DNA from: Eledone cirrhosa
Taxonomy: Eukaryota
DNA length: 64,000 bases
Reading direction: 5' to 3'
Assembly (NCBI GenBank): GCA_964016885.1
Contig: OZ024741.1
Span: 396,924,001-396,988,000, forward strand
Positions 5,924-57,421 of this stretch are shown here, piece by piece (within the stretch, counting starts at the first letter, position 1; each line of letters starts with the position of its first letter). The position numbers and the translations under genes were made by a program. The notes beneath the pieces are model-generated. The model was given only the letters and a program-made list of their open reading frames with translations. It did not search any database and was not told the origin of the DNA.

Positions 5924-6004
<81 letters not shown>

Positions 6005-17429: not shown

Positions 17430-17460
<31 letters not shown>

Positions 17461-17807: not shown

Positions 17808-17862
<55 letters not shown>

Positions 17863-18107: not shown

Positions 18108-18150
18108 TATCAAAGTTCTTTCGTTGCACATCTGCAACATCGTCAGTGGT
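18108..18150 (-). ncRNA. Minimal hammerhead ribozyme, PLE 2 left arm
   Basis: Minus strand CACCA-CTGACGA-T-GTTGCA gatg TGCAAC-GAAA-GAAC-TT-TGATA; weak stem I. Confidence 0.65.
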
Positions 18151-18420
18151 GCTATTGTTTTACTCCCGTTGCATTGTATTTTCTACACCATTTTTATTTA
18201 GTCTGTTTATATATTTATTTATTTGTTTATTTTATTTTGTCTTCTTTGCGCATGCGTTTTCGTGTGTGTATAGTGTTTTGTTTGATGTGTGTTCGTGATT
18301 GGGTGACTGTGTATTGGTTAATGTATTCTATCTTTACTAGTGTGTGTTTATATGTGTTTGTTGTTATTGTGCTTGTGTATGTATTTATTTATGTATTTAT
18401 TTATCTATTTATTTATTTAT

Positions 18421-19497: not shown

Positions 19498-19592
19498 TGT
19501 GCTACATTCTAAATCAAACTTGTTAGTGCTCTCTTGTGGGGGAGAGCACTAACAAGTTTGAGCACTAACAAGTTTGATTTAGAACGTAGCAC

Positions 19593-20670
19593 AATGGAAA
19601 GCATCCAGCAGATAGCTAATTCCATACACCAGAGTATAATTGTAACTATCGACTACCCTTCCAAACACCCTAACAATAGACTACCTGTATTAGACACGGA
19701 ACTCTGGATTAACACTATAGACGAGAGAGCCCAAATTCTCCACTCACACTATGCTAAACCCATGGCCTCCAAATAGCTGATACTCAAAAGCTCAGCAATG
19801 TCCAGTAGTGCTAAGTTTAATATTCTGATCACAGACTTCGTACGAGTGATGAAGAACGTGTCCCGCATGTGCGACCCAAAATAAATGGAAACACACATCC
19901 AACACTTCATCAATCGCATGCAGTTCTCTGGCTACAACCAAAGAGACAGAATCAGAGTAGACGAAGGAGCCACGGAGAAGTATAAGACCCTCATAGAACT
20001 GGACATGAAAGGAATTTGCTCATTATACAGGAGCAAATCATGGAATAGCTTAGATAGGGCTAGATATAAGATAGGGAAAGCCACCTCATGGTACGACAAC
20101 AAGAGATACCAGAGTATCATGTTTGTGGACGCTACCCCTGGAGGGAAATTAGCTAACCAGTGTAGAAAGGCCCTGAGAAAGACCCACTTAAAGATTAAGG
20201 TGGTAGAAAAGCCAGGAACCACCATAAAATCCCTGATCAGCAAAACCTACCCTTTTAAGAAAACCCACTGTACTAATAGGAAATGTATCATATGTAAGGT
20301 AAACGCCCGGATAAACTGTAAAACTAGAAACGTAGTCTATAGCATAAGATGTACAGAGGGTACTTGCCGAAACATGACAACAACATACATAGGCGAGACA
20401 GCTCGTAGCATAGGTGAAAGGATAGACCAACACTGGGGGGAACTAAAAGGACGAAAAAACGGTTCAGTACTATACAAACATGCCAGACAACAACACGACG
20501 GTAACATAGACAACATAGAAATTAGAATAATATCTAAACATAGAAATGACCCAGCAGATAGGCAAATCAGAGAGGCCAGTGAAATAGAACTTAGAAGGCC
20601 AAGGCTAAACAGAAAAAATGAATGGAATAACAACACCCAAACAAACAACACTGACCTAAGAGAAGTATAA
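19593..20670 (+). pseudogene. PLE 2 right arm GIY-YIG ORF with two premature stops
   Basis: Mirror of 18421-19497 with TAG at ~19774 and TAA at ~19882. Confidence 0.8.
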
Positions 20671-27945: not shown

Positions 27946-28038
<93 letters not shown>

Positions 28039-28040
<2 letters not shown>

Positions 28041-29800
28041 TTTCTTTATTGGCCACAAGGGCTGACATCAAGAAAAACATTACAGACGGTACAGGGCGGT
28101 ACGATGTGGGATTTGTGCGTGTAAATATTTTTATTATTTATATAAGAAAAGAAAAAAAAGACATAGAAACATATATATATATATATATATAAACAATAAA
28201 AATGAAAATTGAAACAATGAAAAATTCCCCAATAGGGGGGGAACTTCCGAGGGTTACTCGTGGCGAAAACCACATAAAAGACCACGGCCACCCTGACCCC
28301 CAGGGCAAGCGCCCTCTCTCAATTTTTCCATTTCACAGGCATATATTCAGAGCGGTCCCATTCACTCGGACCATTCTCGCTAGATTCACCCACCTTTCAA
28401 CAAACTTGCTAGAAGGCAGCACTTGCCTCTCCACCCTGATTTTCCTCTTCAAGTGAAACTTGAAAAAGTTAATCAGGGATTCGCCGAAGAGGAAAGTATC
28501 TGTCTTTAACCCTTTCAACCTTGTCCACCACACAATCTCTTTCGCCATGGCCACCAGGAAGATGAAAACCGCCTGCCCTTCCTCCTCGAAGGAAGACGGC
28601 GAGACCATCTGCACAATGGACTCAGTCGATAACTGGATCAGTCCTACACGCGACAGCAACTGTTCGACATAGCTCCACAAGTCAGCAATGCTCGGATACT
28701 GAACGAGTGCGTGCACGACGCTTTCGTCGCTCTGCGCGCATCTCGGACAGGCTCGGCTGACTTCCGTGCCTGTAGATCTTATCTCGAACCGGCAACGCTC
28801 CCCGGTAGCACTGCCAGGACAGGGATTTTTGGAAGTTATCCATAGGCTCTGGGCTGAAAGTTCTCCGGAAGAGAGCAAACAGCTGATCTTCTTCGACGCC
28901 CACGTCGTCGCTCTTCCCCTCCACTAGTCCTCTATATAAAGCCTAGGTGGATGTTCCACCGATACTGTTGTCCAGCTGGCAGAGGGCAGTGAGCACCTGG
29001 AGTCATTCCAGTTTAAAGCGTTATCCCTCGGTCTTTTCCTGACCCAAGACTGCAGCTCCGTCAAGGAGACGAGCTGTGGGAAAACGTGCCTGTCGAACGG
29101 CGACCACACCTGTTTACCGTCAAGGAAGCACCAGAGATGTCGCAGCCTCAGCGCATGTTTGCGCATCATCAGCCATGGCATGCCCAGTCCTCCACGCAAC
29201 AGGTGTTGACAGCAGATGGAACGTCTGACCATGGGAGCGCGTCCCTTCCACAAAAAGCGGAAGAGGAGGCGCTCCATTTTGGTGAGAGTTGGGCCGGGGC
29301 AAGGGACGACGACGCAGATGACGGATGCGATGTACGCATTCGCCACCTCCGCCCGGCTTTTCATGGACAGCTTCCTCTCGGCCCATTTCTGGGTGAGGGA
29401 GGCCACCTTGCTCGTCACCTCGCTCCAATTTTTCTCCACCGGTCCGAATTTAACCGGTCCGTCCGTCCAACGCCCCACGACGCCGTCGGACGGCATGGAC
29501 TTGCCTCTCCAAGTGCCGAGCTGCAAGCCCACCGACTTTTCCTGGTTTATCTTTGCTCCTGTCACCGCTTCTTATTCCTTGAGAGCGGTGCCGAGCATCT
29601 GGACGTGTCTGGTGCTCGACACCACCACGGTGACGTCGTCGGCATAATCTGACACGAACTTCTGCATCCTAGTTCGCGAGGTATCCCCTCATGGTCTCCA
29701 ATTTATGCGGTAATGGCTCGAGAGCCAGTACGTAAAAGAGGGATGAGAGAGGAAAACCTTGGCGGACCGAGCACATGATGCCGAACGGCTGCGACAGGTG
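28039..29800 (-). mobile_element. Tx1/L1-clade LINE, 5'-truncated, degraded (copy 0)
   Basis: ORF2 C-terminal fragments (TGAKINQEKS, GGLGMP, CPRC..ESVVHALVQ); 3' end abuts (AAT)n 27981-28038. Confidence 0.85.
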
Positions 29801-30616
29801 ATAGGGGGGAAGACGCACGTGGTGGATAGAGTGTTATGGAATCGCTCCCGTAAGTTTTTGATTTTTAACAATTGTGATATAACAATTGTGATATAACAAT
29901 TCTTAGTACAAATGGGACATAAGGCACCAGTCTTAGCTCTCTGGAAATGAAGACTCATAACACCCTGGTATATGACTCAAATATTCAATTTTGTATTGGA
30001 AATTTTATATTCAAAAAAGAAAATGGTTATAAATGGAAGAAAACCCCCTCTGTCTACACTAAATAGAACAGCCAAGTAACGACAATTTCACCACCACAAC
30101 CTAGATACACCACCTAACACCCCCCTCTGTGTACATTAAATACTACAGCCAGATAACGGCAATTTCACCACCACCAATCCCAGTATAATAATTATTATTA
30201 TTATTGTATCTTAAGTTTTCTCAAAATGTTTAATAAGGAAATATATCAACATGTATATTAAACATAGGCGACAAACCGCATAGATATACAGATCAAACGC
30301 ATACTAGCTACAGTCTATTCAACAGAATTCAGTAGCGACAACGCCATCACTATAGTACCACTATCCCATCACCGCCGCCACCACTCCATCATTGCTACCA
30401 CCACTATTCCCCTACTACCGTCTGTTAACTTAAGAAAGGGGAAGGTGGCGCTAACACTAGACAAGGGAGGGGCTAACAAAAGATATAAATAGACTGACAT
30501 ATTGACTCGGTCAAACGTTAACGGCTATGGCAAGAGAAAACAAACCAGCAACACCGGCATAGCCAACAACAGAAGCAACTTCAACAAAAAGTATATTACA
30601 TTATTAATAATAATTT

Positions 30617-34658: not shown

Positions 34659-34725
<67 letters not shown>

Positions 34726-34967
34726 TTTTCTTTATTAACCACAAGGGTTCACATAAAGTAGACATTAAGGACAGTACAGGACAATACAGGACGGTACAAA
34801 TGGGCATTTCTGCGTGTAAAAAAACAGAGGTTGAAATAAAATAACAAAGAAAAATTCCCCAATAGGGGGGAGACTTCCAAGGGACATTTGTGGAGAAAGC
34901 CCATTAAAAGACCACAGTAGCCCTGACCACCAGGGCAAGTGCCCTCTCCCAGTTTTCCACCTTTAAT

Positions 34968-37900
34968 TTACAGACACATACTCAGAGAAGGCCCATTCAT
35001 TCGGGCCATACTTGCTTCTCTCACCCATCTTTCAACAAAATGCTGGGAAGAGAGCACTTCCCTCTCTACCCTGATTTTCCTTTTCAAATGAAATTTGAAA
35101 AAGTTAATCAGGGCATCACCGAAGAGGTAAGTGCTCGTCTTCAGCCCTTTCAAACGTGTCCACCATACTATCTCTTTCGCCATGGCCACCAGACAGATAA
35201 AAACTGCCTGCCCTTCCAGGCTAAAGGAAGGGGGCGGGGCAATCCTCACGATGGACTCAGCTGATAGCTGGATCCGTCCTACACGTGACAGCAGGTGTTC
35301 GACATAAACCCACAAGTCAGCAATGCTCGGACACTGGACGAGTGCGTGCAGGACGGTTTCGTCGCCCTGCGCGCATCTCGGACATGCCCGGCTGACGGCA
35401 CCTCCATGCCTGTAGAGTTTATCCCGAACTGGCAAAACTCCTCGGTAGCACTGCCAGGCCAGGGATTTCTGGAAGTTGTCCATAGGCCCCGGCCCGAAAG
35501 TCCTTCCGAAGAGATTGGCTAGTTGATTTTCGTCGACGCCTAGAGTTTCTCCAAGTACGTCGTCGCTCTTCCCCTCCACTAATCCCCTATAGAACGCCAA
35601 GGTGGAGTTTCCACCGATCACATTGCCCGATTGGTCGAGGGCTGTGAGCGCCTGAAGACATTCCAGTCTCCAAGCGCTCCCTCTCGGTCTTCGCTTGACC
35701 CAGGACTGCAGCTCCGTCAAGGAGACGAGTTGGGGAAAAACGTGTCTTGCAAACGGCGACCACACCTGATCACCGTCGAGGAAGAGGTGGAGATGTCGTA
35801 GCCTGAGCGCGTGTCTGCGCATCATCAGCCACGGCATGCCCAGCCCTCCACGTAGCGGGTGTTGACAGCAGATGGACCGCCTGACCATCGGAGCGCGTCC
35901 CTTCCACAAGAAGCGAAAGAGCAAACGCTCCAGCGCAGTCAGGCGGGGCTTAGGACAAGGTACGACCGTCAGGCGGTAGTAGATGACGGATGCGATGTAC
36001 GCATTCGCCACTTCCGCTCGACCTTTCAGGGATAGCTTCTTCTCCGCCCATTTCTGGGTGAGAGAAGCCACCCTGCTCGTCACCTCGTCCCAGTTTTTGT
36101 CCGTCTGGAGGTCTGGACCGAACCAGACCCCTAGCAATTTAACCGGTCCGTCCGTCCAGCGCCCGACGACGCTGTTGGACGGCATGGACCTGCCTCTCCA
36201 GGTGCCGAGCTGCAGGCCCACTGACTTTTCCTGGTTGATCATTGCTCCTGTCACCGCTTCGTATTCTCTTAGTGTAGTGCCGATCGCCTCGATGTGTTTG
36301 GCGTTCGACACCACTACGGTCACATCGTCCGCATATGCTGACACGGATCTTCCGCATCCTAGTTCGCGCGGGACCCCCCTCAACGTCTCCAGTTTGTGCA
36401 GTAATGGCTCGAGAGTCAATACGTACAATAGGGACGAGAGGGGACATCCTTGACGGACCGAGCGCATGATGTTGAACGGTTCCGAAAGGTGACCGTTCAC
36501 TCTCACTACAGATCAGATGTCGCTGTGCATGGCAGCGATCCGGCCTCTGAAGACGGGCCCAAAGCCAGCCGCCCTCAGGACTGCCGTTAGGTAACGATGG
36601 TCGACCCTATCGAAGGCTTTCGACTGATCTAAATTGATCAAAGACCCACCCGTGCCAGGTTCCCTAGCTACCCTCTCTACGATGTATCGCATGAGGTGGA
36701 GGTTGTCGTGGATGGATCTGTCGGGAATGGCGCATGTCTGTGCCTCTCCCACCAGACCACCAACGACAAGCGCCAACCTCTTTGCTAGCACCTTGGCCAA
36801 AATCTTGAACTCTGTGTTTAGCAGAGTTATGGGCTTAAAATTATCTATGTTATCCCCCTTGTTCGGATCCTTTCTCAGCAGCGCCACCGCTCCTCGGCTC
36901 ACAGAGCTGGGAATTCTCCCGTTCTGTTGCCAGTTGCAGTAGACGTCCGCCAAGAGGCCTCCGAACAAGTTTGGCATTTGTGCGTAAAGTTCATTGGGCA
37001 GACCATCCAAACCAGGCGATTTACCCCTTGTGCAACTAGTCATTGCATCCCGTACTTCAGCGGTTGTTATCGGCTTTTCGCAACACTCCGCCTCAGTGGC
37101 CGAAAGCCACGGCAGTCCGTCAAGGTAGACACTAAAGTCCATCCCTCGATCCGACCCGCCACTGCCCCCGAACAGTTGCGCGAAGTGTCGCTGAAAAGCT
37201 TCACACATTTGCTCGGGATCGAGTAGCATGCGCCCGTCGTGGTCCACCAAAGACCGGATCGTGGCTTTGTTGCCACGACGCGCCTCCGCCACTCGGACCC
37301 ATTGAACGGCTTTCGTCCCCTCGTGTCTGAGAGCACGCACCCTAGCTCTGACAACGCAGCCTTCGTGCTTTGCATTGAAGAATTGGTCAAGGGCCAATTT
37401 CGCCGCAAGTACGTCGGTCGCGATGCCTTTTCTAAGCGCCTCATCTAATTTTCTAACTAATTCTCCCTCTGCTCTATTTTTCTCTATTGCTAAAGTCTTA
37501 CTAAACCTAATGGACTCTATTCTAATTGCTCTTTTCAGAGCAAACCACCACTTGTTGTTGACGATGGCCCCCGTCAACGCCCGCTTAACTAGTTCGCTAA
37601 TCCGGTCTCTGTAGGCCTTGCGCGCTGGTAAGGACGCGTTTAGCTTCCAGTAGCCGGGTCCTCGTCTATGAAGCCTATCTAAGTCAAGCACACAGATCAC
37701 GAATTTGTGGTCCGTGTAGCTGACTATCTTGAATTGTGGACAGCCTATGCTAGACCTATCTATTTCCCTACAAAATACTCTATCTAGATATGATCTGGAT
37801 GACCCTATGCGATTTGTCCAAGTCCACATTGGTACATTCGGGAAATCCATTCGGTATCTGTCAGACAGTTCAAAACGTCTGAGCAGGTTGGTGAGACTCT

Positions 37901-38387
37901 TGCACCCTCCTTCCCTATCCACTAATCCCACACAATCCCAGCGTGCATATAAGATCCCGTTCCAGTCGCCCACTAACACTAAAGAGCGGGACGTTCCAAG
38001 AAAGGTCTCCAGACGCCGGAAGAAATCAGGCCCCCCTGCTCCTGTCGGGGCATAGACGGCCACTAACCTGAAAGCTTGCCCGTCTCCGCTGGTCACGTCC
38101 AGCACCACCAACTTACCTTCTGGGTCCAGGAAGATGGCCCGTATGGCAAGATCCAAACCTCTCCAAAAAAGCACAGCAACTCCTCCCCCCGATCCCGGAC
38201 GGCTGGGAGATGCGTACACATCGTAGCCGCCGAAGATCGGTGCGAAAGCCTGTGCTTCGGAGATTCTGGTCTCGCTGATGGCCACTACATCTATGTTTAG
38301 TGACCTGAGGTCGTTGAGCAGGTGGCCCTGCTTCCATGACGACCCCAAGCCACGCGCATTTATGCTGCCTATTCTGAGTGAGGTCAT
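34968..38387 (-). pseudogene. Tx1 ORF2 (APE endonuclease, RT, CCHC), one frameshift at ~36510
   Basis: SINARGL, SET, VYAP, GDWN, YLDR, TDH; KSPGLDG, LDQSKAFDRV, RQGCPLS, YADD; CPRC..ETVLHALVQC. Confidence 0.9.
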
Positions 38388-38421
38388 GTTGAAAAGGAGT
38401 GGAAAAGATGGGAAAGACCAC

Positions 38422-40404
38422 TTACCTTACTTCTCGTAGGGGAAGGACGGCTTTTCCATCCTTTTCACTGCTTGTGGCCTCCTCAGGAAGGATGTCCTTA
38501 TAAATCCTCCTGGAGAGTGCTTGTCGGAAGTCTCCGATGTCTTTGGGGAATTTTTGTTTTAGTGTCATGTACGTTTTCTGTGTAATGCGAGTGATTTGTA
38601 TGTGTGGATGTGGTGTGAATTTTGGGGTTGTTGTGTAGTCTTTTTCTGTGATGCTGGTGTTGTGTTGGATGTAGTGTAATAATTGCTTGTTGTTCAAATT
38701 TAATGCTGTGTAGTGTGTATCGTTTTGGTTGTTTTGTTTTGTTTGCGTTTGTTGTGGGTTTGTTTCTGTTTCGCATTTTGGTGACTTTTGTGGTGTAGGT
38801 GATGGTGGTGTTGGAGTTAATGATGGTGATGGTGTTGGTGTTTGGGTTGATGGGGTTGGTGATGCTGGTGTGGATGGTGGCATATCTGTCCTAACTTTTT
38901 GGTTTCTTAGTTTATTTGTTTCCCTCTGTATTTTGTTTTTGGAGGGGGAAGGAAGAGAATTTTTTCTTTTTTGGTTTCTTTTTTTTTTTCCGGATATCGT
39001 TTCCCACTCCTCGTCGTTACAATCTGTCTCCAGTTGTGATAGGCCGGGGAGTGGAAAATCCTCCACAGCCGTTAGTTTTGGTTGTGGTGTGGTGGATGGT
39101 GTAGGCGCTGGTGCTAGTTCTGAAGCGTTGGGTGGTGGTGGTGTTGGTTTTGCTGGTGCTGGTAGTGGTGTTGGTTTTGCTACTGTTGCTGGGGTTGTTG
39201 CTGTTATAGTTGCTTCTGTTGTTGCTGCTACAGTTGTTGCTGCCATCTCTGCTACTGGTGGTGTTGATGGTTGTGTCACTGGGGTGGGTAGGAGAGGTGG
39301 CCTCAACCTTTTAGCCTGAGGGCAGAAAGCCCTTAGGTGGGTTCCTTCACCACAAACGACACACCTAGGTCTTCTGCCCTCGACAATTACCGTGAGGTGG
39401 CTGCCGTCAGTGAGGTCTATTACCTCTGGGATCTCCTCAATGCTTTTTTGGTCCGCTTGGATCAGGAGCTCCATCCCAGATCCGGACCAGTTTTCCTGCT
39501 TTTCTTTTGCTATTGTTATTATTTTCGTGTTGGCCTCGATGCCGGCGATGACAGCCGCTATTAGCCAGGGAATTTCGATGGCCGGTGGAACGTGGGTTAC
39601 CCTGATCTTTACGAGTCTCTGGCCACAATAGCTTGGGACGAGTGTGAAGTCGTCACTTTTTAATGGGGCCATGGAGTGTTCTCTAGCCTCCTCTGGTGTT
39701 TCAAAGAACATCCACGGTTCCATACTTTTGCCCACGTCTGATGTGGGTTTTTCTTGCCCACACATGTCCCAAAGCTTTTGGGATTTGGGACTCGGATGCC
39801 CGTTCCACTCGGCGCGATTTTACATTTATTGTTCTATACGACACGGTGCATAGGCGCCGATGCTCCATTTTATTAGGTGGGGGGTGAGGCTGACCCTGTA
39901 CCCATCTTTCTTTACCATTTGTTTGGCATTTTCTAAATCTTCTTGAGTTACCGTGAACGCTTCGAATTGTTATGCTACGATGGCGAAACTGAGGGTCGGT
40001 TTTATAATGTCATTGTTGTTGTTGTTGCTATCGTTAATATTAATTTTATTTTCAGTTGTGGTGGTGGTGACGTCAGTCGTCTTTGGTGGGGAAGAGTCCA
40101 TTTTGCTTGATTTCATTTCGACGTCACGAGTTAATTTATTTTTTTCTTCTTTTGTTTCTGTTGTCGCGGTGGTGGTGGTGGTGGTGGTTGTCGCGGTGGT
40201 GGTGGTGGTGGAGGGTTTAACACCTGCAGTCATTGGTAATGGCGGGAAATGAATGTCTGCCTGAGACAAATTTAAAATATTGCTACTGATTATATTTTTT
40301 TTTGTGTTGGCAAACGTAGTAACATTTACAATGGTGGTGTCAGTGTGAGGTGTTATTTTGTGAGGAAGGCTTTCAGCTGCTTCGTGCAGAGGGGAATTAG
40401 CCAT
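38422..40404 (-). pseudogene. Tx1 ORF1 (gag-like, CCHC knuckle, Pro/Thr-rich), disrupted
   Basis: CVVCGEGTHLRAFC knuckle, WETISGKKKR basic patch, Thr/Asn-rich N-terminus; stop and frameshift between ~39765 and 39970. Confidence 0.8.
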
Positions 40405-40637
40405 TTTTTTTCAAAGAAATTTTTGGATAATAATAAAAGTTAAAATTTTGGGCACAAGGCCCCAATCTTTTTGGGTGTCCTTTTCAGAAAACAATGTATG
40501 TGTGCTTATAAACAGTTTACAATAAAATTTTCCATAAATGGCAATTTTTAAACAAACGGAAATAACAAACCTTTGCGGAGCTCACGATAATACGATTTCC
40601 TACGTAGGTCGCCAATAATAATAATAATAATAATAAT

Positions 40638-43600
40638 GATTTCTTTATTAACCACAAGGGTTTACATAAAGTAGACATTAAGGACAGTGCAGGACAATAC
40701 AGGACGGTACAAATGGGCATTTCTGCGTGTAAAAAACAAAAACAGAGGATATAACAAAAAAATAACAATTAAAGATTGGGAGAGACTTCGGAGGGACATT
40801 TGTGGGGAAAGCCCAGTAAAAGGCCACAGTGACCCTGACCACCAAGGCAAGTGCCCACTCCCAGTTTTCCACCTTTAATTTACAGATACGTACTCAGAGT
40901 AGGCCCATTCACTCGGGCCATTCTTGCTTCTCTCACCCATCTTTCAACAAAATGCTGGGAAGAGAGCACTTCCCTCTCTACTCTGATTTTCCTTTTCAAA
41001 TGAAATTTGAAAAAGTCAATCAGGGCATCACCGAAGAGGTAAGTGCTCGTCTTCAGCCCTTTCAAACGTGTCCACCATACTATCTCTTTCGCCATGGCCA
41101 CCAGACAGATAAAAACTGCCTGCGCTTCCCGGCTAAAGGAAGAGGGCGGGGCAATCCTCACGATGGACTCAGATGATAGCCGGATCCGTCCTACACGCGA
41201 CAGCAGGTGTTCGACATAAACTCACAAGTCAGCAATTTTCGGACACTGGACGAGTGCGTGCAGGACGATTTCGTCGCCCTGCGCGCATCTCGGACATGCC
41301 CGGCTGACGGCACCTCCATGCCTGTAGAGTTTATCCCTAACTGGCAAGGCTCCTCGGTAGCACTGCCAGGCCAGAGATTTCTGGAAGTTGTCCATAGATC
41401 CCGGCCCGAAAGTTCTTCCGAAGAGATTGGCTAGTTGATTTTTGTCGACGCCTAGAGTTTCCCCAAGTACGTTGTCGCTCTTCCCCTCCACCAATCCTCT
41501 ATAGAACGCCAAGGTGGAGTTTCCACCGATCACATTGCCCGATTGGTCGAGGGCTGTGAGCGCCTGAAGACATTCCAGTCTCCAGGCGCTCCCTCTCGGT
41601 CTTCGCTTGACCCAGGACTGCAGCTCCGTCAAGGAAACGAGCTGGGGAAATACGTGTCTAGCAAACGGCGACCACACCTGATCACCGTCGAGGAAGAGGT
41701 GGAGATGTCGTAGCCTGAGCGCGTGTCTGCGCATCATCAGCCACGGCATGCCCCCCCCCCCCCACGTAGCGGGTGTTGACAGCAGATGGACCGCCTGACC
41801 ACCGGAGCGCGTCCCTTCCACAAGAAGCGAAAGAGCAAACGCTCCAGCGCAGTCAGGCGGGGCTTAGGACAAGGTACGACGGTCAGGCGGTAGCAGATGA
41901 CAGACGCGATGTACGCGTTAGCCACCTCCGCTCGACCTTTCAGGGATAGCTTCCTCTCCGCCCATTTCTGGGTGAGAGAAGCCACCCTGCTCGTCACCTC
42001 GTCCCAGTTTTTGTCCGTCTGGAGGTCCGGACCGAACCAGACTCCTAGCAATTTAACCGGTCCGTCCGTCCAGCGCCCTACGACGCTGTTGGACGGCATG
42101 GACCTGTCTCTCCAGGTGCCGAGCTGCAGGCCCACTGACTTTTCCTGGTTGATCATTGCTCCCGTCACCGCTTCGTATTCTCTTAGTGTAGTGCCGATCG
42201 CCTCGATGTATTTGGCGTTCGACACCACTACGGTCACATCGTCCGCATATGCTGACACGGATCTTACGCATCCTAGTTCGCGCGGGACGCCCCTCAACGT
42301 CTCCAGTTTGTGCAGTAATGGCTCGAGAGTCAATACGTACAAGAGGGACGAGAGGGGACATCCTTGGCGGACCGAGCGCATGATGTTGAACGGTTCCGAA
42401 AGGTGACCGCTCACTCTCACGACAGAGCAGTGGTCGCTGTGAATGGCAGCGATCCAGCCTCTGAAGACGGGCCCAAAGCCAGCCGCCCTCAGGACTGCCG
42501 TTAGGTAACGATGGTCGACCCTATCTAAAGCTTTCGACTGATCTAAATTGATCAAGGACCCACCCATGCCAGGTTCCCTAGCTACCCTCTCTACGATGTA
42601 TCGCATGAGGTGGAAGTTGTCGTGGATGGATCTGTCGGGAATAGCGCATGTGTGCGCCTCTCCCACCAGACCACCAACGACAAGCACCAACCTCTTTGCT
42701 AGCACCTTGGCCAAAATCTTGAACTCTGTGTTTAGCAGAGTTATGGGCCTGAAATTATCAATGTTATCCCCCTTGTTCGGATCCTTTCTCAGCAGTGCCA
42801 CCGCTCCTCGGCTCACAGAGCTGGGAATTCTCCCGTTCTGTTGCCAGTTGCAGTAGACGTCCGCCAAGAGGCCTCCGAACAAGTCTGGCATCTGTACGTA
42901 AAGTTCATAAGGCAGACCATCCAAACCAGGCGATTTATCCCTTGTGCAGCCAGTCATTGCCTCCCGTACTTCAGCGGCTGTTATCGGCTTTTCGCAACAC
43001 TCCGCCTCAGTGGCCGAGAGCCGCGGCAGTCCGTCGAGGTAGACACTAAAGTCCATAACTCGACCCGGCCCACCGCTGCCCCCGAACAGCTGAGCGAAGT
43101 GTCGCTGAAAAGCTTCACACATTTGCCCGGGATCGAGTAGCATGCGCCCGTCGTGGTCCACCAAAGACCTGATCGTGGCTTTGTTGCCACGACGCGCCTC
43201 CGCCACTCGGACCCATTGAACGGCTTTCGTCCCCTCGTGTCTGAGAGCACACACCCTAGCTCTGACAACGCAGCCTTCGTGCTTTGCATTGAAGAATTGG
43301 TCAAGGGCCAATTTCGCCGCAAGTACGTCGGTCGCGATGCCTTTTCTAAGCGCCTCGTCTAATTTTCTAACTAGTTCTCCCTCTGCTCTATTTTTTTCTA
43401 TTGCTAAAGCCTTACTAAACCTAATGGATTCTATTCTAATCGCTCTTTTCAGAGCAAACCACCACTTGTTGTTGACGATGGCCTCCGTCAACGCCCGCTT
43501 AACTAGTTCGCTAATCCGGTCTCTGTAGGCCTTGCGCGCTGGTAAGGACGCGTTTAGCTTCCAGTAGCCGGGTCCTCGTCTATGAAGCCTATCTAAGTCA

Positions 43601-46600
43601 AGCACACAGATCACGAATTTGTGGTCCGTGTAGCTGACTATCTTGAATTGTGGACAGCCTATGCTAGACCTATCTATTTCCCTACAAAATACTCTATCTA
43701 GATATGATCTGGATGACCCTATGCGATTTGTCCAAGTCCCCATTGGCACATTCGGGAAATCCAATCGGTACCTGTCAGACAGTTCAAAACGCCTGAGCAG
43801 GTTGGTGAGGCTCTTGCACCCTCCAGCCCTATCCGCTAATCCCACACAGTCCCAGCGTGCATCTAAGATCCCGTTCCAGTCGCCCACTAACACTAAAGAG
43901 CGGGACGTTCCAAGAAAGTTTTCCAAACGCCGGAAGAAATCAGGCCGCCCTGCTCCTGTCTGGGCATAGACGGCCACTAGCCTGAAAGCTTGCCCGTCTC
44001 CGCTGGTCACGTCCAGCACCACCAACTTACCCTCTGGGTCCAGGAAGATGGCCCGTATGGCGAGATCCAAACCTCTCCGAAAAAGCACAGCAACTCCTCC
44101 CCCCGATCCAGGACGGCTGGGAGATGCGTACACTTCGTAGCCTCCGAAGATCGGTGCGAAAGCCCGTGCTTCGGAGATTCTGGTCTCGCTGATGGCCACT
44201 ACATCTATGTTTAGTGACCTGAAGTCGTTGAGCAGGTGACCTTGCTTCCATGACGACCCCAAACCACGCGCATTTATGCTGCCTATTCTGAGTGAGGTCA
44301 TGTTTAAAATGGAGTGGAAAAGATGGAAAGACCACTTACCGTACTTTTCGTAGAGGAAGGATGGTTTCTCCATCCCTTTTCACTTGATCGTCTGGTGAAG
44401 GGACCGTTGAATCGTCCCTTCAGCTGGTCGTCGGCTCTTCTATGAGCATGTCCGAATATACTCTCCGGTTGAGAGTCCCTCCTAGGTCTCTGAAATCACC
44501 AACTGCGTTGGGGAATTTCGTTTCAATGTTTGTGTATTGTTTCTGTGCTATTTTTACCAGTCTTATGTTCGTTGGCGTTTTGATTGGTGCTGGTATTATG
44601 TAGTCGTGCTGTGAAATGTCTGTGTGTTCAATTATGTAAGTCATTAGTTTCTTGTTGTGTGTATTTATTGCCGTGCATTTGTTTTTCTGGGGGTGGGGTG
44701 TGGTTCTGCTATTTTCTTGTCGTTGTTGCTGGGTGTGTGTGTTTTGTTGTTGTGTTTGCAATGTTGGTGCTTGTGGTAGTGGTGTTGAAGGTGTTGTTGT
44801 TGTTGGCGGTGGGGTTTTCGCCGGTGGTGATGGTGGTGCTAGTGTGGGTGGTGATGGTGTTGGTGGTGTTGCTGCTGTGAGTCTCTTTGCAGTAGCCTTT
44901 ACCCTTTTTTCATTTCTTTCCTCCCTTTTCGAAGGCGACGATGCGCTGCTTTTGCGTTTGTGCCTTCTTACGACCTTTTGCCATCTCTCTCCCACCTCAC
45001 ACTCCATGTCTGATTCTGTGAGGTCGGGGAGGGGTACCAGGTCCACTCTTTCACTTGTTGTTGTTGGTGATGTTTGCAGTGGAGTCTCTGTTGCAGCTGC
45101 ATTTGGTATTACTGTTGTTGTTGTTAATACTTCCACTGCTGCTGCTGTTCTTGATTTCCGTGGCGTGGGTATGGGTGCCACGGACATATCGTTCTTGGTT
45201 GCCGCTTGTCCTGTTGCTGGTAGCCGTGGAGCTGGTTTCGGAAGGAGGGGGGTTTCCTCCTTTCTCAGGGTTTCTCGTTGCAGAAGGCCCTGAGGTGAGT
45301 CTTCGATCCACAGCGAAAGCATTTCGGGCGTTTGCCCTCAACACTTATGGGCAGTTGAGTGCCGTTATCGAAGTCTATCACATCCGGGATAGCTTCGATG
45401 CACTCCTGGTTGGTTTGGATTAACATCTCAATGGAGATGCCGACCCAATCCTCTCTTACTTTTTTCTGTACTTGCAGTACAGTTGTTTTGTCCTCGATTC
45501 CGACGAGGACAGACGCGGCCAGCCAAGAAGGGGCCATCCCGGGGGGGGCGTGGGTCAGTTTGACCCTCACAATTTTTTGCCCGCAGTAGGAGGGCACCAA
45601 CACCATTTCCTCGCTCCTTAGGGTCACTAAGAATTGAGCCATTGCCTCCTGGGGTGTGGCAAAAAGCACGTCTACGGTGACATATTTCTTGCCTCGGGTG
45701 ATATGCGTTTTCCGCTGCCACACAGACCCTAAGGCTTTTTGTATTTGAGCCTTTGTGGCTCTTTCAACCCTACGGGATTTTGTGCTTACTGTACGGTACG
45801 TGACCGACACCTGTTGGGTTTCTAAAAATTTTTCGGCTGCTTTGCAGATTGCTCGGTAGTCCGATTTCCGTCACCATCTTCTTCGCTTCCTCTAATTCCT
45901 CATTTGTTATGAGGATGGTTTCCAGGTTCTTTGCGATACCTGCAAACGAGATTGGTTTTTCTTTGCTGCTGTTGTTGTTGTTGTTGTCGTCAGAGCTGCT
46001 GTTACTTTTGTTGTTGTTGCAGGTACTACGACTACTGCCGCCGCCGCTGTTGCTGTGGTTGTTGTTGTTGTTGCTGCTGCTGCTGTTGTTGTTGCTGTTG
46101 CTGCTAATGCTGTTGTTGTTTATGCTGCTGCTGATGCTGTTGCGGCTGCTACTGTTGTTTTCCTTGTCACTGTTGCTGCTGCTGCTGTTATTACGGCTGC
46201 TACTGCTATTATTCATGACGTCAGATGAATGAAATGGGTTTTCGTATTTACCGCACTTCTTTTTCGTCGTTGTCGTCGTCGTGGAGAAATGTTTCATGAT
46301 TTGCACGTGATTTTGTAAACTATTTTTCTTTACTGGTGTCGCTGGCGAAAGAGAAGGGAGGGAGAGAGACACATTTAGAGAAGGGAGGGAGAGAGACAAT
46401 CTTCTCTCTGCTGTAGTGACAATTGAGGAAGAAGAAGACGGAATGAGTGGGAGTGACTTGTGAAAATTCTTTTTCGTAGCCATGTTTTTTTGGGGTTTAA
46501 AATAAATATTGGGCACAAACCCCAATAAGCGGTTGTTTAACCCCGAAGGGCCAAATAACGGGCAGAAAGACCCCTCTCACGAGGAGGAGGGTGTTTTTGT

Positions 46601-46712: not shown

Positions 46713-49700
46713 GGTTTCTTTATTGGCCACAAGGGCTAACATGAAGAAAAACATTAGAGACGGCACAGAACGATAGAGGACGATACAAAGTGGGTTTGGG
46801 CCGTGTAAAACGGGTTATAACAAGAAGATAGAAATATCAAAATAATTCAAAAACCACACAAAAGACCACGGCCACCCTGAACACCAGGGCAAGCGCCCTC
46901 TCTCAGTTTTCCACTCCTCAGTCTACAGGCGCATACTCAGAGTGTGCCCGTTCACTCGGACCAGACTCGCCACTTTCACCCACCTTTCAACAAACTTACT
47001 AGAACACAGCACTTGTCTCTCCACCCTGATTTTCCTCTTCAAGTGAAATTTTAAAAAGTTAATCAGGGATTCGCCGAAGAGGAAAGTGTCTGTCTTCAAT
47101 CCTTTCAACCTTGTCCACCATACAATCTCTTTCGCCATGGCCACCAGGCAGATGAAAACTGCCTGCACTTCCTCCTCCTTAAAGGAGGATTATGGGGCTA
47201 TCTGCACAATGGACTCACTCGATAACCGAATTCGTCCTACACGCCGCAGCAAATGTTCGACATAGCTCCACAAGTCAGCAATGCTGGGACACTGAACGAG
47301 TGCATGCACAGCGGTTTCGTCGCTCTGTGCGCATCTCGGATAGGTCCGGCTGACGGCACTTCCGTGCCTGTAGAGCTTAACTCGAACCGGCAACGCTCCC
47401 CAGCAGCACCGCCAGGACAGGGATTTCTGGAAATTGTCCATAGGTCCCGGTCTGAAAGTTCTCTTGAAGAGAGCGAACAGCTGATCGTCTTCGACGCCCA
47501 GGGTCTCCCCAAGAACGTCGTCACTCTTCCCCTTCACTAGTCCTCTATAGAACGCCGAGGTGGATGTTCCACCGATACTAGTGCTCAGCTGGTAGAAGGC
47601 TGTGAGTGCTTGGAGACATTTCAGCTTCCAAGCGCTATCCCTCGGTCTTTTCCTGATCCAGGACTGCAGCTCCGTTAATGAGACGTGCTGGGGAAAAACA
47701 CATCTGGCAAACGGTGACCACACCTGTTCACCATCAAGGAAGCACCAGAGATGTCGCAGCCTCAGCGCGTGTTTGCGCATCATCAGCCACGGCATGCCCA
47801 GCTCTCCACGCAACGGGTGTTGACAGCAGATAGATCGTCTGAGCATGGGAGCACGGCCCTTCCATAAAAAGCGGAAGAGAAGGCGCTCCATTTTTGTCAG
47901 AGTTGGGCCTGGGCAAGGCACAACGGTTAGGCGGAAGCAGATGACGGATGCGATGAACGCATTCGCCACTTCTGCCAGACCTTTCAGGGACAGCTTCCTC
48001 TCGGCCCATTTCTGTGTGAGAGAGGCCACCATGCTCGTCACCTCACTCCAGTTTTTCTCCATCTGAAGGTCCGGACCGAACCAGACCCCGAGCAATTTAA
48101 CCGGTCCTTCCGTCCAGCGCCCCACGACGCTGTCGGGCGGCATGGATTTGGCTCTCCAGGTTCCGAGCTGCAAGTCCACCGACTTTTCCTGGTTTAACTT
48201 TGCTCCTGTCACTGCTTCATATTCCTTTAGAGCGGTGCCGAGCATCTGGACATGTCCAGCGCTTGACACAACCACGGTGACGTCGTCGGCGTAAGCCGAT
48301 ACGGATCTCCTACATCCCAGTTCGCGTGGGACGTCTCTCATCACCTCCAATTTGTGCAGTAGCGGCTCTAGGGCCAATACGAACAAGAGTGACGAGAGAG
48401 GACAACCCTGACGGACCGAGCGCATGATGCTGAACGGCTGTGACAGATGACCGTTCACTTTCACAACTGAGCAGATGTCGCTGTGCATCGCCGCGATCCA
48501 ACCCCTGAAAATGGGCCCGAAACCAGCCGCCTCTAGGACCGCCGCCAGATACCGATGGTCGACACTATCAAATGCCTTAGATTGATCTAAGCTGATCACG
48601 GCCCCACCCGTGCCAGGTTCCTTAACCATCCTCTCTATGATGTATCGCATGAGATGGAGGTTGTCGTGGATGGATAGGTCTGGAATGGCGCATGTCTGCG
48701 CCTCTCCTACCATATTAACGAATACAAGCACCAATCTCGTTGCTAACACCTTGGCTAAAATCTTGAAATCTGTGTTTAACAAAGTTATGGGCCTGAAGTT
48801 GTCTATAACGCCCTCTTTGTTCGGGTCTTTTCTCATTAGCGCCAACGCTCCCCGACTCACAATACTAGGAACGCCCCAGTTCTGCCAGTTGCAATAGACG
48901 TCTGCCAAGAGGTCGCCGAACAAGTCTGGCACGTACGCATAAAGCTCGTAGGGCAGACCATCCAAACCAGGCGATTTATCCCTCGAGCAGTCAAACATCG
49001 CTACCCGTATTTCACCAGCTGTTATTAGCTTTTCGCAATACTGCACTGCAGTTGTCGAGAGCTGCGGCAGTCCCTTGAGGTATGCACTGAAGTCATACTC
49101 CGACCTAGCCCGCCGCCGCTCCTAAACAGTTGAGCAAAGTGCTGTTGAAAACCCTCACACATCTGCTCGGGTTGGAGTAACATGTGCCCGTTTTGGTCAG
49201 GCAAGGATTGAATTGTGGCTTTGTTGCCACGTGGCGCCTCCACCACACAGGCCCATTGGACAGCTTTTGTCCCCTCTTGTCTCAGAGCACGCGCTCTAGC
49301 CCTGACAACGCAGCCTTCGTGCTTTGCATTGAAGAATTGGCCGGGTGCTAATCTCGCCGCAAGCACGTCGGTTGCGATGCCTATCCTAAACGCCCCTTCT
49401 AGCTTTCTAACTAACTCTCCTTCTACTCTATTTTCCTCTATCTTTACTCCTTTGCTAAACTTTATTGATTCTACTCTAATTGCCCTTTTCAGGGTAAACC
49501 ACCACATGTTGTTGACGATCGCACCCTTCAACGCACGCTTAACTAGTTCGCTTATCCGGTCTCTGTAAGCTTTGCGCGCCGGGAAAGACGCGTTCAGCTT
49601 CTAGTAACCGCGTCCTTGCCTATGAAGTCTATCTAAGTCAACTTCACCTATCACAAATTTGTGGTCCGTGTAGTTGACTACTTTAAATTGTGGACAACCA

Positions 49701-52027
49701 ACGCCAGCCTTATCTGTTTCCCTACACAATACCCTATCTAGATACAATCTGGATGACCCGACGCGGTTTGCCCATGTACATATTGGCACATTCGGATAAT
49801 CCAGTCGATACCTGTCAGACAGTTAAAAAGGTCTGAGCAGGTTGTTGAGGCTTTTACATCCTCTTCCTTTATTTACTAGCCCCACATAATCCCAGCGTGC
49901 ATCTAGGATACCATTCCAGTCATCCACTAACACTAAAGAGCGGGACGTTCCAAGAAAGGTCTGAAGAAATCTGGCCGTCCTGCCTAGACGGCTACTAGCC
50001 TGAAAACATTGCCTTCGCTGCCTGTCACGTCCAGTACCACTGACTTACCTTCTGGGTCCAGGAAGATGGCCCGTATGGCGAGATCCAACCTCTCCAAAAA
50101 AGCACAGCAACTTAGCCCCCCACTCCCGGGCGGCTTGGAGATGCGTATACATCGTAGCCGCCAAGGATCGGTGCGAAGTCTCGTGCTTCAGAAATTCTGG
50201 TCTCGCTGATGGCCCCCACATCTATGTTTAGTGACCTGAGATCGTTAAGCAGGTGGCTCTGCTTCCAAGATGACCCCAGGTCACGTACATTTATACTGCC
50301 TATTCTAAGTAAGGCCATGTTGGGTGAGGAATGGAGGAAGTGAGAAAGGATCACCTACCCTGATCGTGTGGGGAAGGGACAGTTGAACCGTCCCTTTGAC
50401 TGGTCATGGGTATCTCCAAGATGATGTCGGTGTTTATCCTTTTGGCAACTGACCCTCTGAAGTCTCCAACTGCGTTGGGGAAATTTTCTTTTAAATGTTT
50501 ATAATGTTCTATTTTAATTTAAATAATGTATATATTTTTCAGGAGAGTTCTTGGTGTTGGTGGGGTGTAGTAATTTGTGTCCGTAATGTCTGTGTGCCTC
50601 TTTATATATTCTAAGAGTTATTTATTTGCCATGTTTATGGCTGTGTAATGTTTTTGGAGGGGTTTAGTTTTGATGCTGTTTTCTTGTTGTTGCTGTTGGG
50701 TATGTTTGTCTTGTGTTTGCGATGTTGATGTTTGTGGTGATGCTGGTGGTGTGGTGGTTGTTGGTGGTGGTGGTGTGGTGGTTGTTGGTGGTGATGGGGG
50801 TGGCGTTGCTGCAAGTCGCCTTGCAGCCTTTACCCCTCTTTGTTTGCCTTCCATTTTGGAGGGTGAAGCTAAAGGATGTTTTTGTTTTTTTGTGACAGAC
50901 CGTTTACCACTTCACCCCCGCCTCAGACTCCATGTCGGATTCCGTGGCGTCTCGGAGGGGTATGTGCTCCATGGCTGTTGGTGGTGGTAGTGGAGCCCTC
51001 TCCGGCAATTTTTTTGCTGGAGCAGCTACTGCAAATGTAGCTACTGGTGTTGCCGCCACTGCTGCTACTTTAGTTGTCTGTGGCCTTGGTATGGGTGCCA
51101 AGGCCTTTTGGATTTGAGCCTCCGTGCTCTCTCCACCCGATGTGATATTTTGCTTACGGTGCAGTAAGTGAACGTTCGTAACTGCTCGTCCTTGAACAAA
51201 TCGGGTGGAGATTTCAGGGAAACTCTATTGGCATTTCTTGTCACCATGGCCCTTGCGACTGCCATTTTCTCCTCCGTGACTAACACTGTTTCGATATTTC
51301 GGACCACACCTGAAAAAGAAGTGACCCCTTTTTCAGCGGCACCACTATTGCTGCCACTACTGGTTTTGCTGGTGGTGCTGAGATGGCTGTTACTTGTATT
51401 GATGTCATTGTTGCTGTTTTCGTTGGTACTGTTGTTGCTGTTGTTGTTGTTTTCGTTGATACTGTTGCTGTTGTTTTTCTTATTGTGGCTGTTGTTATTA
51501 TTGTTGTTTTTGTTGATACTGTTCCCACTCTTATTGTTGTTGTGGCTGTTGTTATTATCATTGTTATTGTCTTTCTCGACCTTATAGCTATTATTTTTGT
51601 TGTTTCTGTTGTTATTGATGGTGTTGTTGTTGGTGTTGTTTGTGTTAGAAATATTTGGTAATTTTAAATCTGTAACAATATCATTAAAAATGATATTTTC
51701 TTTTATATTTACCTTCGCGAGAACGCTGTCTTGTTGATATGTTGACAAAGTCCCCCTCTCTCTGTGTTGTTTGACAGCGCTCTCTCTCTCTCTTTCTTGT
51801 GTTATCCACGTTGAAAGAAATTTCTTTTTTTCAAATAATTTTTTACATAATACGGCACCCCATAAAGGGGTGCCGTATTATTTACCAGTGAACCCCTGTA
51901 TTAGGTGAGTCATTTCTTGTAAACTTTTATCAAGTTTAAACCTTGATTAAAGGTTAAGAACGGTTGAAAACGAGGTAAACTGTTGAAAAAAAAAACTGAA
52001 GGCGATAAGAAGCGTGGCTTCACCTTC
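46713..52027 (-). mobile_element. Tx1/L1-clade LINE copy C, divergent subfamily, degraded, ORF1 internally deleted
   Basis: ORF2 fragments 46923-50318 (RQGCPLS, YADD); Asn-rich ORF1 N-terminus joins the Pro/Thr region near 51100 without the knuckle; (AAT)n on both sides. Confidence 0.9.
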
Positions 52028-55200: not shown

Positions 55201-57421
55201 AGGTCATGTTGAAAATGAGTGAAAAAGATGGGAAAGACCACTTACCTTACTTCTCGTAGAGGAAGGATGGTTTTTCCATCCTTCTCACTGTTTATGGCCT
55301 CCTCCGGAAGGATGTCCTTATAAATCCTCCTGGAGAGTGTTTGTCAGAAGTCTCCGATGTCCTTGGGGAATTTTAGTTTTAGTGTCGTGTACATTTTCTG
55401 TGTTATGCGACTGATTTGTATGTGTGGAGGTGGTGTGAATTTTTGGAGTGTTGTGTAGTCTTTTTCTGTGATGCTGGTGTTGTGTTGGATGTAGTGTAAT
55501 AATTGGTTGTTCAAATTTAATGCTGTGCATTGTGTATCGTTTTGGTTGTCTTGTTTTGTTTGCGTTTGTTGAGGGTTTGTTTCTGTTTCGCTTTTTGGTG
55601 ATTTTTGTGGGGTTGGTGATGGTGGTGTTGGGGTTATGATGGTGATGGTGTTGGTGTTTGTGGTGATGGGGCTGGTGATGCTGGTGTGGGTGGTGGGATA
55701 GCTGTCTTACCTTTTTTGTTTGTTTGCTTATTTTTTCCCCCTTCATTTTGTTTTTGGAGGGCGAAGGAAGACGATTTTTTCTTTTTCTTTTTTTCAGATA
55801 CAGTTTCCCACTCCTCCTCATCGTCACAATCTGTCTCCAGTTGCGATATGTCGGGGAGTGGAAAATCCTCCTCAGGCGTTGGTTTTGGTTGTGGCGTGGT
55901 GGATGGTAGAGGCGTTGGTGCTAATTCTGGCGCGGTGGGTGGTGGTGGTGTTGGTTTTGCTACTGTTGCTGCTACAGCAGTTGCTGGGGTTGTTGCTGCT
56001 ACAGTTGCTTCTGTTGTTTCTGCTACAGTTGTTGCTGCCATTTCTGCAGCTGATTTTGATGGTTCAGTCACTGGGGTGGGTAGGAGAGGTGGCCTCAACT
56101 TTTTAGCCTGAGGGCAGAAAGCCTTTAGGTGGGTTCCTTCGCCAAAAACGACACACCTAGGCCTTCTACCCTCAACGATTACGGTGAGGTGGCTGCCGTC
56201 ATTGAGGTCTATCACCTCTGGAATTTCCTTAATGTTTTTTTGGTCCGCTTGGATCAGGAGCTCCATCCCAGATCCGGACCAGTTCTCCTGCTTTTCTTTT
56301 GTTACCTCAATTATTTTCGTGTTGGCCTCGATGTCGGCGAGGACGGCAGCCATTAGCCAGGGAATTTCGATGGCCGGCGGAACGTGGGTCACCCTGATCT
56401 TCACGAGTCTCTGACCACAATAGCTTGGGACGAGTGTGAACTCGTCACTTCTTAATGGGGCGGTGGAGTGCTCTCTGGCTTCCTGTGGTGTTCCAAAGAA
56501 CACGTCCACAGTTCCATATTTCTGCCCACGTCTGATGTGAGGTTTTTTCGCCCACACATGTCCCAAAGCTTTTTCTATCTAGGACTCGGATGCCTGTTCC
56601 ACTCGGCGTGGTTTTATGTTTATCGTCCCATATGACACGGTGCATAGGCGCCTATGCTCCATTTTATTAGATGGGGGGGGGGGTTGACCCTGTACCCATC
56701 TTTTTTTACCATTCGTTTGGTTTCATTCAATTCATCCTGGCTTACCTCGATTGTTTCGCTTTTCTTGGCTGCTTTGGCAAACGACACATTTTGTTTTGCA
56801 CTGGTGTTGATGTTGTTGTTGTTATTTTCATTGTTGTTGTTGTTGCTGTTGTTGTTATTGTTATTTTTGTTATTGTTATTTTTAGTTTCAATTGTGGTGG
56901 TGGTGGTGGTGTCAGTGGTGTTCGGCGTGGAAGAGTCGATTCTGGGTGAATCCATTTCGATGTCACGAGATAATAATTTATTTTTTGTTTCTGTTGTCGC
57001 TGTGGTGATGGTGGTGGGGGTGGCGGCTTTAACACCTGCTTTTTTTGGTAATGGCGGGAAATGAATGTCTGCATGTGACAAATTTAAATTATTGCCACTG
57101 CTTATATTTTTAGTGTTGGCAACCGTAGTAATATTTACAATGGTGGTGGTGGGAGGTGTTGATTTGTTAGGAAGCTGTCAGCTTCGAGTGGTTGTGAGTC
57201 GTCCATGTTTTTTTTCAAAGAAAATTTTTGTTTGATAATTATAAAAGTTTAAATTTTGGGCTCAAGGCCCCAATATTATTGAGTGTCCTTTTCAGAAAGC
57301 AATATATGTGAATTTATAAACATTTAACAACAAACATTTTCCATAACTGGTAATTTGAAACAACTGAAAACAACAAACCTTTGTGGAGCTCACGATGATA
57401 CGATTTCCTACGTAGGTCGCC
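52243..57421 (-). mobile_element. Tx1/L1-clade LINE copy D (same subfamily as A), RT core deleted
   Basis: 5' end TTTCCTACGTAGGTCGCC identical to A; ORF2 jumps from GEAQTC to DKNWDEV near 53558, losing ~630 nt including YADD. Confidence 0.9.

Follow-up and report, generated by a model that had tools for sequence, protein, structure and literature searches.

A tandem array of LINEs with three types of ORF1

The window analysed here is a stretch of 64,000 nucleotides (nt) from Eledone cirrhosa (assembly GCA_964016885.1, contig OZ024741.1, positions 396,924,001 to 396,988,000; all coordinates below are those of the window). Its minus strand carries a head-to-tail array of four long interspersed elements (LINEs), in the order D-C-B-A and with ATT repeats between copies (34700-57440), which comprises three types of the first open reading frame (ORF1). 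Our subject is the sequence on either side of the second frame, ORF2: a 5' splice-site (donor) motif just upstream of the ORF2 ATG, and a predicted long-range helix between this upstream region and the sequence that follows the ORF2 stop. The four copies and the main landmarks of copy A are the following.

57440-52226, minus strand: copy D, LINE, array member
52230-46686, minus strand: copy C, LINE, array member
46690-40614, minus strand: copy B, LINE, array member
34700-40630, minus strand: copy A, full-length L1-group (Tx1-like) LINE, last of the array
38422-39765, minus strand: ORF1 of A, open frame from the first listed ATG, with a TAA stop inside the donor (phase 2)
38385-38387, minus strand: ORF2 ATG of A, from the ORF listing
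34731-34736, minus strand: AATAAA of A, followed by ATT repeats

ORF2 begins at 38387 in A, 44301 in B, 50318 in C, and 55207 in D. It encodes an APE endonuclease (EN), a reverse transcriptase (RT), and a C-terminal zf-RVT domain and is preceded by a separate ORF1, an organization that places the elements in the L1 group. The closest solved protein is human L1 ORF2p (E = 5e-48 with ORF2 of copy B as query), and a protein from Argonauta hians is 54% identical to ORF2; ORF1 of A matches no Pfam family. ATT repeats are found in the window at the 3' ends, at three of the four 5' ends, and at the array junctions; they may represent tail, target, or both.

For comparison, related families were collected from a single 3.0-Gb genome (G000), the source of all families discussed. 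Labels F1 to F15 were assigned by eye from matches to the ORF2 N terminus, and one copy represents each family. In trees of this genome's families, three well-supported clades are seen, with the window's own copies in clade I; four-fold degenerate (silent) sites are 44-57% identical between clades, and clade III mostly lacks the AATAAA-ATT end. Family A is very young, as 40 of 40 scored copies are identical across 281 nt, and 2230 junctions in the genome match its exact unspliced flanks. Family F2, with many open ORF2 frames of 1150 amino acids, looks very young as well. It also forms a pure array of at least 10 copies about 5.84 kb apart (G000:C1:423365218-423418069).

A donor motif kept independently of ORF1 coding

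Immediately upstream of ORF2, each copy has the same arrangement of hairpin, donor, and pyrimidine-rich spacer (a slash marks the end of the putative exon).

38443-38463, minus strand: hairpin H1 of A, whose purine arm can alternatively pair with the spacer (A, B, and D only)
38420-38428, minus strand: 5' splice-site motif AAG/GTAAGT of A; the first intron base would be 38425
38388-38419, minus strand: pyrimidine spacer of A, the 5' strand of the predicted long-range helix
44302-44377, minus strand: B module, with A-type hairpin, donor ACG/GTAAGT, and spacer; first intron base 44339
50319-50396, minus strand: C module, with hairpin, donor AGG/GTAGGT (phase 1), and spacer; first intron base 50358
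55208-55284, minus strand: D module, with hairpin, donor AAG/GTAAGT, and spacer; first intron base 55245

A preliminary description of the array had reported G/GTAAGT, or G/GTAGGT in C, a short way 5' of ORF2, and all four minus-strand copies indeed have it, with its end 32 nt upstream of the ATG in A, B, and D and 34 nt upstream in C. It extends well beyond the window. G/GTRRGT lies between -62 and -15 of the ORF2 ATG at 74 of 80 genomic loci, which are repeat copies and hence not independent, compared with 71 of 5154 control windows of the same size; the loci had been fetched by patterns or a protein specifying nothing 5' of the ATG. Two degenerate patterns for the ORF2 N terminus gave 1774 and 903 matches, and nearly all of the first 100 of each carry the donor.

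The donor is found in all three phases of ORF1: phase 2 in A, B, D, F3 to F6, F12, F14, and F15, phase 1 in C, F8, F1, F2, F7b, and F10, and phase 0 in F7. Its variants (GTAAGT, GTAGGT, GTAATT after CAG, and GTGAGT in one copy) resemble the variation of 5' splice sites. Scored against the U1 consensus, the donor stands alone at the top of the 219-297 GT sites in 11 of 18 representatives, and in 17 of 18 at most two other sites score equally. The ORF1 stop, meanwhile, moves among families from two nt past the donor to beyond the ORF2 ATG. The comparison thus indicates that the donor is a U1-complementary consensus kept independently of coding.

These results bear on the possibility that motif and hairpins arise as by-products of three things, ORF1 coding, the ORF1 stop codon, and shared ancestry; the first two had been named as the explanation that would undo the preliminary proposal. 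Such a reading could draw on the TAA or TAG inside the motif in phase-2 families, on the Gly-Lys codons that yield the same motif within ORF2 of clade I, and on the origin of all families from one genome. The ORF1 stop nevertheless does not account for the motif, because the donor persists in phases 0, 1, and 2 while silent sites are far diverged, and the locus counts agree; for the donor, coding is refuted as an explanation. Together with the co-variation and strand asymmetry of the flanks described below, which refute it for the helix as well, this leaves the by-product reading with almost no credence.

Local structures around the donor

A local RNA switch had also been proposed at this site, consisting of a hairpin with compensatory changes, an AG-free pyrimidine tract, and a longer stem exclusive of the hairpin. 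The tract of A to D is 75-81% pyrimidine and free of AG, as described, but a single AG is present in 4 of 18 family representatives. The hairpin arms are likewise as described and co-vary in clades I and II, whereas in most clade III families no hairpin lies at the same place; there, folding z-scores of the 60 nt upstream region range from -3.3 to +0.9. Across 11 representatives (clades I and II and F10), four of the eight H1 pairs have changed on both sides and 71.6% of cells are paired, in an alignment that is imperfect and off-register for clade II. The longer alternative stem outperforms shuffles of the tract in A, B, and D (matched by 0, 1, and 0 of 500), but C, F2, F3, and F6 fail (252-464 of 500) and F1 and F8 are borderline (19 and 45 of 500). 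As a family-wide switch it was therefore rejected, being confined to the A/B/D lineage.

In these three copies, H1 together with the long-range helix is computed to be more stable than the local stem by 13-16 kcal/mol, and the local stem would therefore be a state of the nascent RNA. A local switch coupling ORF1 termination to reinitiation is not borne out, since the long stem is specific to A, B, and D and the conserved partner of donor and tract lies after the ORF2 stop. The core of the calicivirus termination upstream ribosome-binding site (TURBS; UGGGA, as defined in the available part of PMC5972666) is also absent from the 100 nt 5' of the donor in all 18 representatives. A search of 34600-57600 against Rfam gave three sub-threshold matches, none at the modules.

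The flanks of ORF2 are complementary and co-vary

The main partner of the spacer is not a local hairpin, but rather the ~45 nt directly behind the ORF2 stop, at a distance of 3.4 kb.

34925-34970, minus strand: ORF2 stop (TAA) of A and the purine-rich 3' strand complementary to spacer and donor
40837-40882, minus strand: ORF2 stop (TAA) of B and 3' helix strand
46880-46925, minus strand: ORF2 stop (TAG, with the candidate acceptor AG) of C and 3' helix strand, with a phase-1 stop in the first following codon
52442-52487, minus strand: ORF2 stop (TAA) of D and 3' helix strand

When the spacer was compared with 580-724 windows of its own element, 14 of 16 families had their best pairing with the window behind the stop. 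The effect is smaller against shuffles that preserve the purine/pyrimidine pattern (0-6 of 300 in nine families and 25-122 in seven), and the complementarity is therefore partly compositional. When the 3.6-kb segment was folded as a whole for two families, A and F2, the global minimum-energy structure contained the helix in both. After the cost of local hairpins is allowed for, a preference for cognate strand pairs is seen in clade III (exact p = 5e-5) and in clade II (p = 0.042), with a combined p of 2e-5. Families with longer spacers tend to have a greater distance between the stop and the anti-donor motif (rho = 0.59, p = 0.01, n = 18). The sense strand pairs more stably than the antisense strand (p = 4e-4), with 95 versus 41 G-U pairs, which points to selection at the RNA level rather than to an inverted repeat in the DNA.

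The prediction also held in eight of nine further copies having a 3' end, three of the 12 copies having been left out for want of one; the failing copy, L169, has its stop region deleted. In the first 3'-end set, 4 of 26 copies had no ORF2 end, and L067, L069, L071, L075, L079, and L113 were omitted as chimeric, misplaced, or redundant; in the second, 5 of 20 new copies had no ORF2 end. The donor's own partner in the helix varies among families while the donor stays GTRRGT, and donor and helix are thus separate constraints.

Some further features of the 3' strand were seen. The strand (34925-34950 and homologous 3' untranslated regions [3'UTRs]) can form a small hairpin of its own, and in A the loop of this hairpin (ACTT) is, by eye, complementary to the donor core (AAGT), such that a loop-loop contact could nucleate the long helix. 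In F10 (L074), the 3'UTR has a perfect anti-donor, and the ORF1 frame of that copy passes through the spacer into the ORF2 region without a stop.

A helix that brings the two ends of ORF2 together might act mainly on translation, holding start and stop in proximity and partly masking the AUG; ribosomes that have finished ORF1 would then need to open the helix in order to reinitiate. In most TAG families the helix does close at the AUG and the stop. The AUG itself is paired in part, its probability of being unpaired ranging from 0.29 to 0.96, and its context, CCAACATGG, is conserved. The available part of PMC5972666 describes coupling that depends on structure in SART1 and mentions that looping has been considered for L1. 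This explanation, however, leaves unaccounted for both the donor's retained complementarity to U1 while its partner changes and the junction of family B described next; a TURBS core is missing, and the ORF1 stop shifts past the ORF2 ATG in some families. We regard it as improbable.

A hybrid family joined exactly at the donor

Copy B differs from its neighbors in having two hairpins upstream of ORF2, because B is a hybrid.

44397-44421, minus strand: parental (C/F8-type) hairpin kept in B, upstream of the hybrid junction
44382-44383, minus strand: hybrid junction of B, where the parental exon end (..CAAG) is joined to A-type ORF1 sequence just behind CAG

Among the matches listed, there are 98 ends of B-type ORF1. 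In 39, the frame runs into its own donor and a C-type spacer; in 57, the sequence passes from the exact exon end of the donor into the A-type sequence that follows CAG in A; and the remaining two are other deletions. The alignment of B to A begins exactly at the junction, and microhomology there is 2 nt, only the AG. The simplest reading of these sequences is that the junction is likely a fossil splice between tandem neighbors that was retrotransposed and then amplified. Read-through transcription in tandem arrays of this kind would permit such splicing between elements. The TGA within the first hairpin of B is a copy-level change (3 of the 98 listed rows). A B-type hybrid junction, corresponding to window position 38465, is also carried by a contig of run X5, a run labelled as another organism.

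Candidate acceptors for removal of ORF2

The ORF2 stop of most families lies in a CT(G/A)TAG context, with G as the usual next base, and offers an AG at the stop codon. If the donor were joined to this AG, an in-phase ORF1 stop would follow within four codons in 12 of 13 families, as against 4 of 26 cases in the other phases (label permutation p = 6e-4); other AG sites give 12-19%. The test excluded F9, in which the phase is ambiguous, the Cg copy, which belongs to the same family as C, and four families ending in TAA. The parental family of B fits the pattern in three of three copies having a 3' end.

The TAA families, A, B, D, and F5, have instead a top-scoring CAG about 160 nt into the 3'UTR, which one decayed F5 copy lacks.

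34810-34835, minus strand: candidate 3' splice site in the 3'UTR of A, a T-rich tract and CAG, top-scoring of 261 AGs; TAA-stop families only

The predicted junction with this CAG would give a 19-residue tail in A and B. In C, F8, and the parental family of B, no AG is present at this position, and the CAG was rejected as a universal acceptor, being confined to the TAA-stop families. Both patterns, the phase-matched stops and the TAA/CAG pairing, are suggestive only, because they reflect few independent changes and could partly follow from the helix.

In 3'UTR starts of clade III and F1 (L061, L064, L068, L073, and L119), a GT comes after the stop-codon AG, so that splicing as predicted would leave behind a new donor-like junction, which in F1 would be perfect. 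Such junctions can be likened to recursive splice sites.

A search for spliced copies

An exact GT-AG joined product has one likely representative, the DNA fossil of family B; targeted searches for removal of ORF2 gave none. Among the rows listed, contigs from runs of unspecified kind show no joint at the donor; they were not counted as evidence for or against splicing. Two ambiguous joins were noted, and neither was counted as a splice. L080 (G000:C1:85684015) begins at the hairpin, continues for 2 nt beyond the donor, and then resumes directly behind a CAG in the RT region, a non-canonical join. L114 (G000:C5:103262773) is a short exon-end fragment that stops at the donor and is joined to RTE-like 3' sequence starting with GT, for which splicing and microhomology are both compatible.

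We also considered a micro-intron of 52 nt, from the donor to an AG in ORF2 codon 5, the removal of which would fuse ORF1 to ORF2. The fusion would be in frame in A, B, and D, and many families offer an AG in either phase within R-[IV]-G codons. No intron-less copy was found against 2230 intact ones, however, even though an RNA without the intron would code for the enzyme and be favored as template, and the candidate was rejected. In the phase-1 families C and F8, moreover, the first and stronger AG is out of frame, and none of five homologues examined (of 10 found, two of them partial) has an ORF1-like N-terminal extension. A micro-intron is accordingly very improbable.

A helix-gated donor as the favored mechanism

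The reading we favor, with confidence that is about evenly balanced, is that the module is a helix-gated splice donor, by which the element would make either full-length or ORF1-only RNA. On nascent RNA, U1 would occupy the donor, and ORF2 would be removed entirely from a share of the transcripts, leaving an ORF1-only message. The predicted helix, of 30-45 base pairs, could form only after the 3'UTR has been made; it would then mask the donor, and the remaining RNA would stay full-length. As acceptor, most families would use the AG of ORF2's TAG, and A, B, and D would use the 3'UTR CAG that lies ~160 nt downstream. H1 would be a side branch, the purine arm of which, in the A lineage, mimics the 3' strand and may compete for the spacer in nascent RNA. 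The purpose might be surplus ORF1 protein, made from an RNA unable to retrotranspose in cis. The earlier suggestion of a U1-bound donor producing ORF1-only RNA thus gains from the constraint at the nucleotide level, from the splice-site-like variation, and from the B junction at the donor, while the ORF1-only RNA itself is a prediction.

A number of observations weigh against this mechanism. The B junction is a single event, and its acceptor tract is weak. About two to four independent events underlie the phase-matched stops, a T in a purine-rich strand begins a stop in three of four TRR codons, and pairing to CCAACATGG also explains the CTGTAGG context. As scored by a hand-set matrix, the stop-codon AG ranks 1-4 as an acceptor in six clade III families but 15 and 18 in two others, 6-18 in clade II, and a poor 28-34 in C and F8. 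A second AAG/GTAAGT about 310 nt downstream in clade I is ordinary Gly-Lys coding. All folding is computed; the representatives of F5 and F4 fail the best-window test, in clade I, to which the window's own copies belong, the preference for cognate pairs does not reach significance (p = 0.16), and A, B, and D show the weakest net binding (-12 to -16 kcal/mol).

The search for retrocopies is a further point on this side. One might expect trans copying of an ORF1-only RNA that retains the 3' tail, yet no match to a junction from the donor to the 3'UTR CAG was found against 2230 unspliced A-type junctions, and none to a junction from the donor to post-stop sequence in A/B, F1/F2, or clade III. In open-ended junction screens (47 places among 100 of 149 rows, and then 7, 10, and 9 places), the changes seen were limited to point mutations and small indels, deletions at microhomologies, and three rearrangements of other kinds. 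That no ORF2-less retrocopy was found could reflect strict cis-preference, or a recognition signal that goes missing together with the helix. A fuller version of the helix-gated donor is put forward as a tentative possibility: the whole of ORF2 would be a regulated intron, with a co-evolving clamp gating the donor, an ORF1-only mRNA having a nearly unchanged C terminus, only unspliced RNA marked as template, which would account for the missing spliced copies, and tandem neighbors swapping ORF1 by splicing.

The lack of spliced retrocopies would also be accommodated if the donor were mostly a non-productive docking site for U1 that protects or retains full-length RNA. The helix would in that case be a fold-back that brings the poly(A) end beside the ORF1 stop and shields the bicistronic RNA from nonsense-mediated decay (NMD), with splicing a rare accident. 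The helix does link the ORF1 stop region to a point ~200 nt from AATAAA, and there are precedents for the separate parts. Engineered fold-backs of this geometry, in which post-stop sequence pairs near the poly(A) end, suppress NMD in human cells, albeit as artificial constructs (PMC2689704, in the part available). In the Ty1/Copia element EVD, U1 at the donor blocks premature termination (PMC5580714, in part). Rous sarcoma virus has a decoy donor (the negative regulator of splicing) and a CU-rich stabilizing tract (the RSV stability element) after the gag stop; this element acts through PTBP1, and the available portion of the source mentions no long-range pairing for it (PMC9143442). On the other hand, the stretch from the donor to the ORF2 stop contains neither AATAAA nor ATTAAA in A, B, F14, and F15, which would leave U1 little to suppress there, and neither the phase-matched stops after the stop-codon AG nor the replacement CAG in TAA families is predicted. 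Docking with fold-back is, by this analogy, a somewhat doubtful explanation of the module as a whole, though it and the helix-gated splice donor are not mutually exclusive.

Other features of the window and relatives elsewhere

Outside the array, a fifth, 5'-truncated copy of C/F8 type retains a short 3' part of ORF2 (28015-29801). Several Penelope-like ORFs lie on both strands at 13837-20670, one of 848 amino acids, with a GIY-YIG-like C terminus whose Pfam match is just under the cut-off, and the 6 kb at 6000-12000 show extreme strand skew (GC -0.6 to -0.8, AT ~+0.4), probably from simple repeats. Relatives elsewhere were not found in a first metagenome scan or in a viral scan, and a second metagenome scan gave one locus, with upstream DNA too short for comparison. 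A family of 39% identity (P0003-P0010) has no close match in G000 (best 41-44%), and a search with the ORF1 C terminus gave 0 matches in 27 candidates, covering lengths of 245-783.

Relation to known systems

The Tx1-clade elements Kibi and Koshi, LINEs that target microsatellites, likewise have two ORFs (PMC4494074, in part), and the ORF2 described here has EN, RT, and zf-RVT domains with L1 ORF2p as the closest solved protein. The present copies also sit in a microsatellite, stacked head to tail, but the repeat is ATT rather than TC or TTC. No conserved donor between the ORFs and no helix flanking ORF2 was found for Kibi or Koshi in the accessible literature (PMC4494074).

The nearest parallel to the predicted splicing is the subgenomic GAG mRNA of EVD, as outlined in the accessible part of PMC5580714. 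In EVD, too, the structural gene has a conserved U1-type donor close to its end, splicing brings a stop soon after the junction, as the predicted junctions would here in 12 of 13 AG-stop families, and U1 has a second, protective role. EVD is, however, a long terminal repeat element in which a short intron over the protease and premature termination have been shown experimentally, whereas in the LINEs the predicted intron spans the entire ORF2 (3.4-3.6 kb), a long-range helix is predicted to gate it, and the spliced RNA is a prediction. By analogy, the strategy is like that of the Copia subgenomic GAG, yet these LINEs are not members of that system.

Spliced products fixed in the genome are known from the SpIREs of human L1, which show that LINE splice sites can be functional (PMC5860796, in part). 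These are splices within the 5'UTR or from 5'UTR to ORF1 and are mostly dead ends; here, the donor is conserved across lineages, and a single likely fossil product, family B, was amplified. Retrotransposon subfamilies founded by splicing an upstream exon onto the element include SVA_F1 and pt_SVA_D6 (PMC6139936, in part). There, the exon came from a host gene, whereas in family B it is the ORF1 half of another LINE family, cut at a built-in donor.

A search at the level of titles and abstracts, with subscription papers and Repbase reports outside its scope, found no published description of an ORF2-flanking helix combined with a donor. Because A and F2 look very young, RNA tests of the proposal are practical. 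The excess of ORF1 over ORF2 protein that LINEs obtain from one bicistronic RNA is usually ascribed to inefficient reinitiation. A natural, co-evolving helix around ORF2 with a built-in donor would be a different solution to the ORF1/ORF2 ratio and to escape from RNA decay, and splicing within tandem arrays would offer a concrete route by which ORF1 may be exchanged between LINE families.

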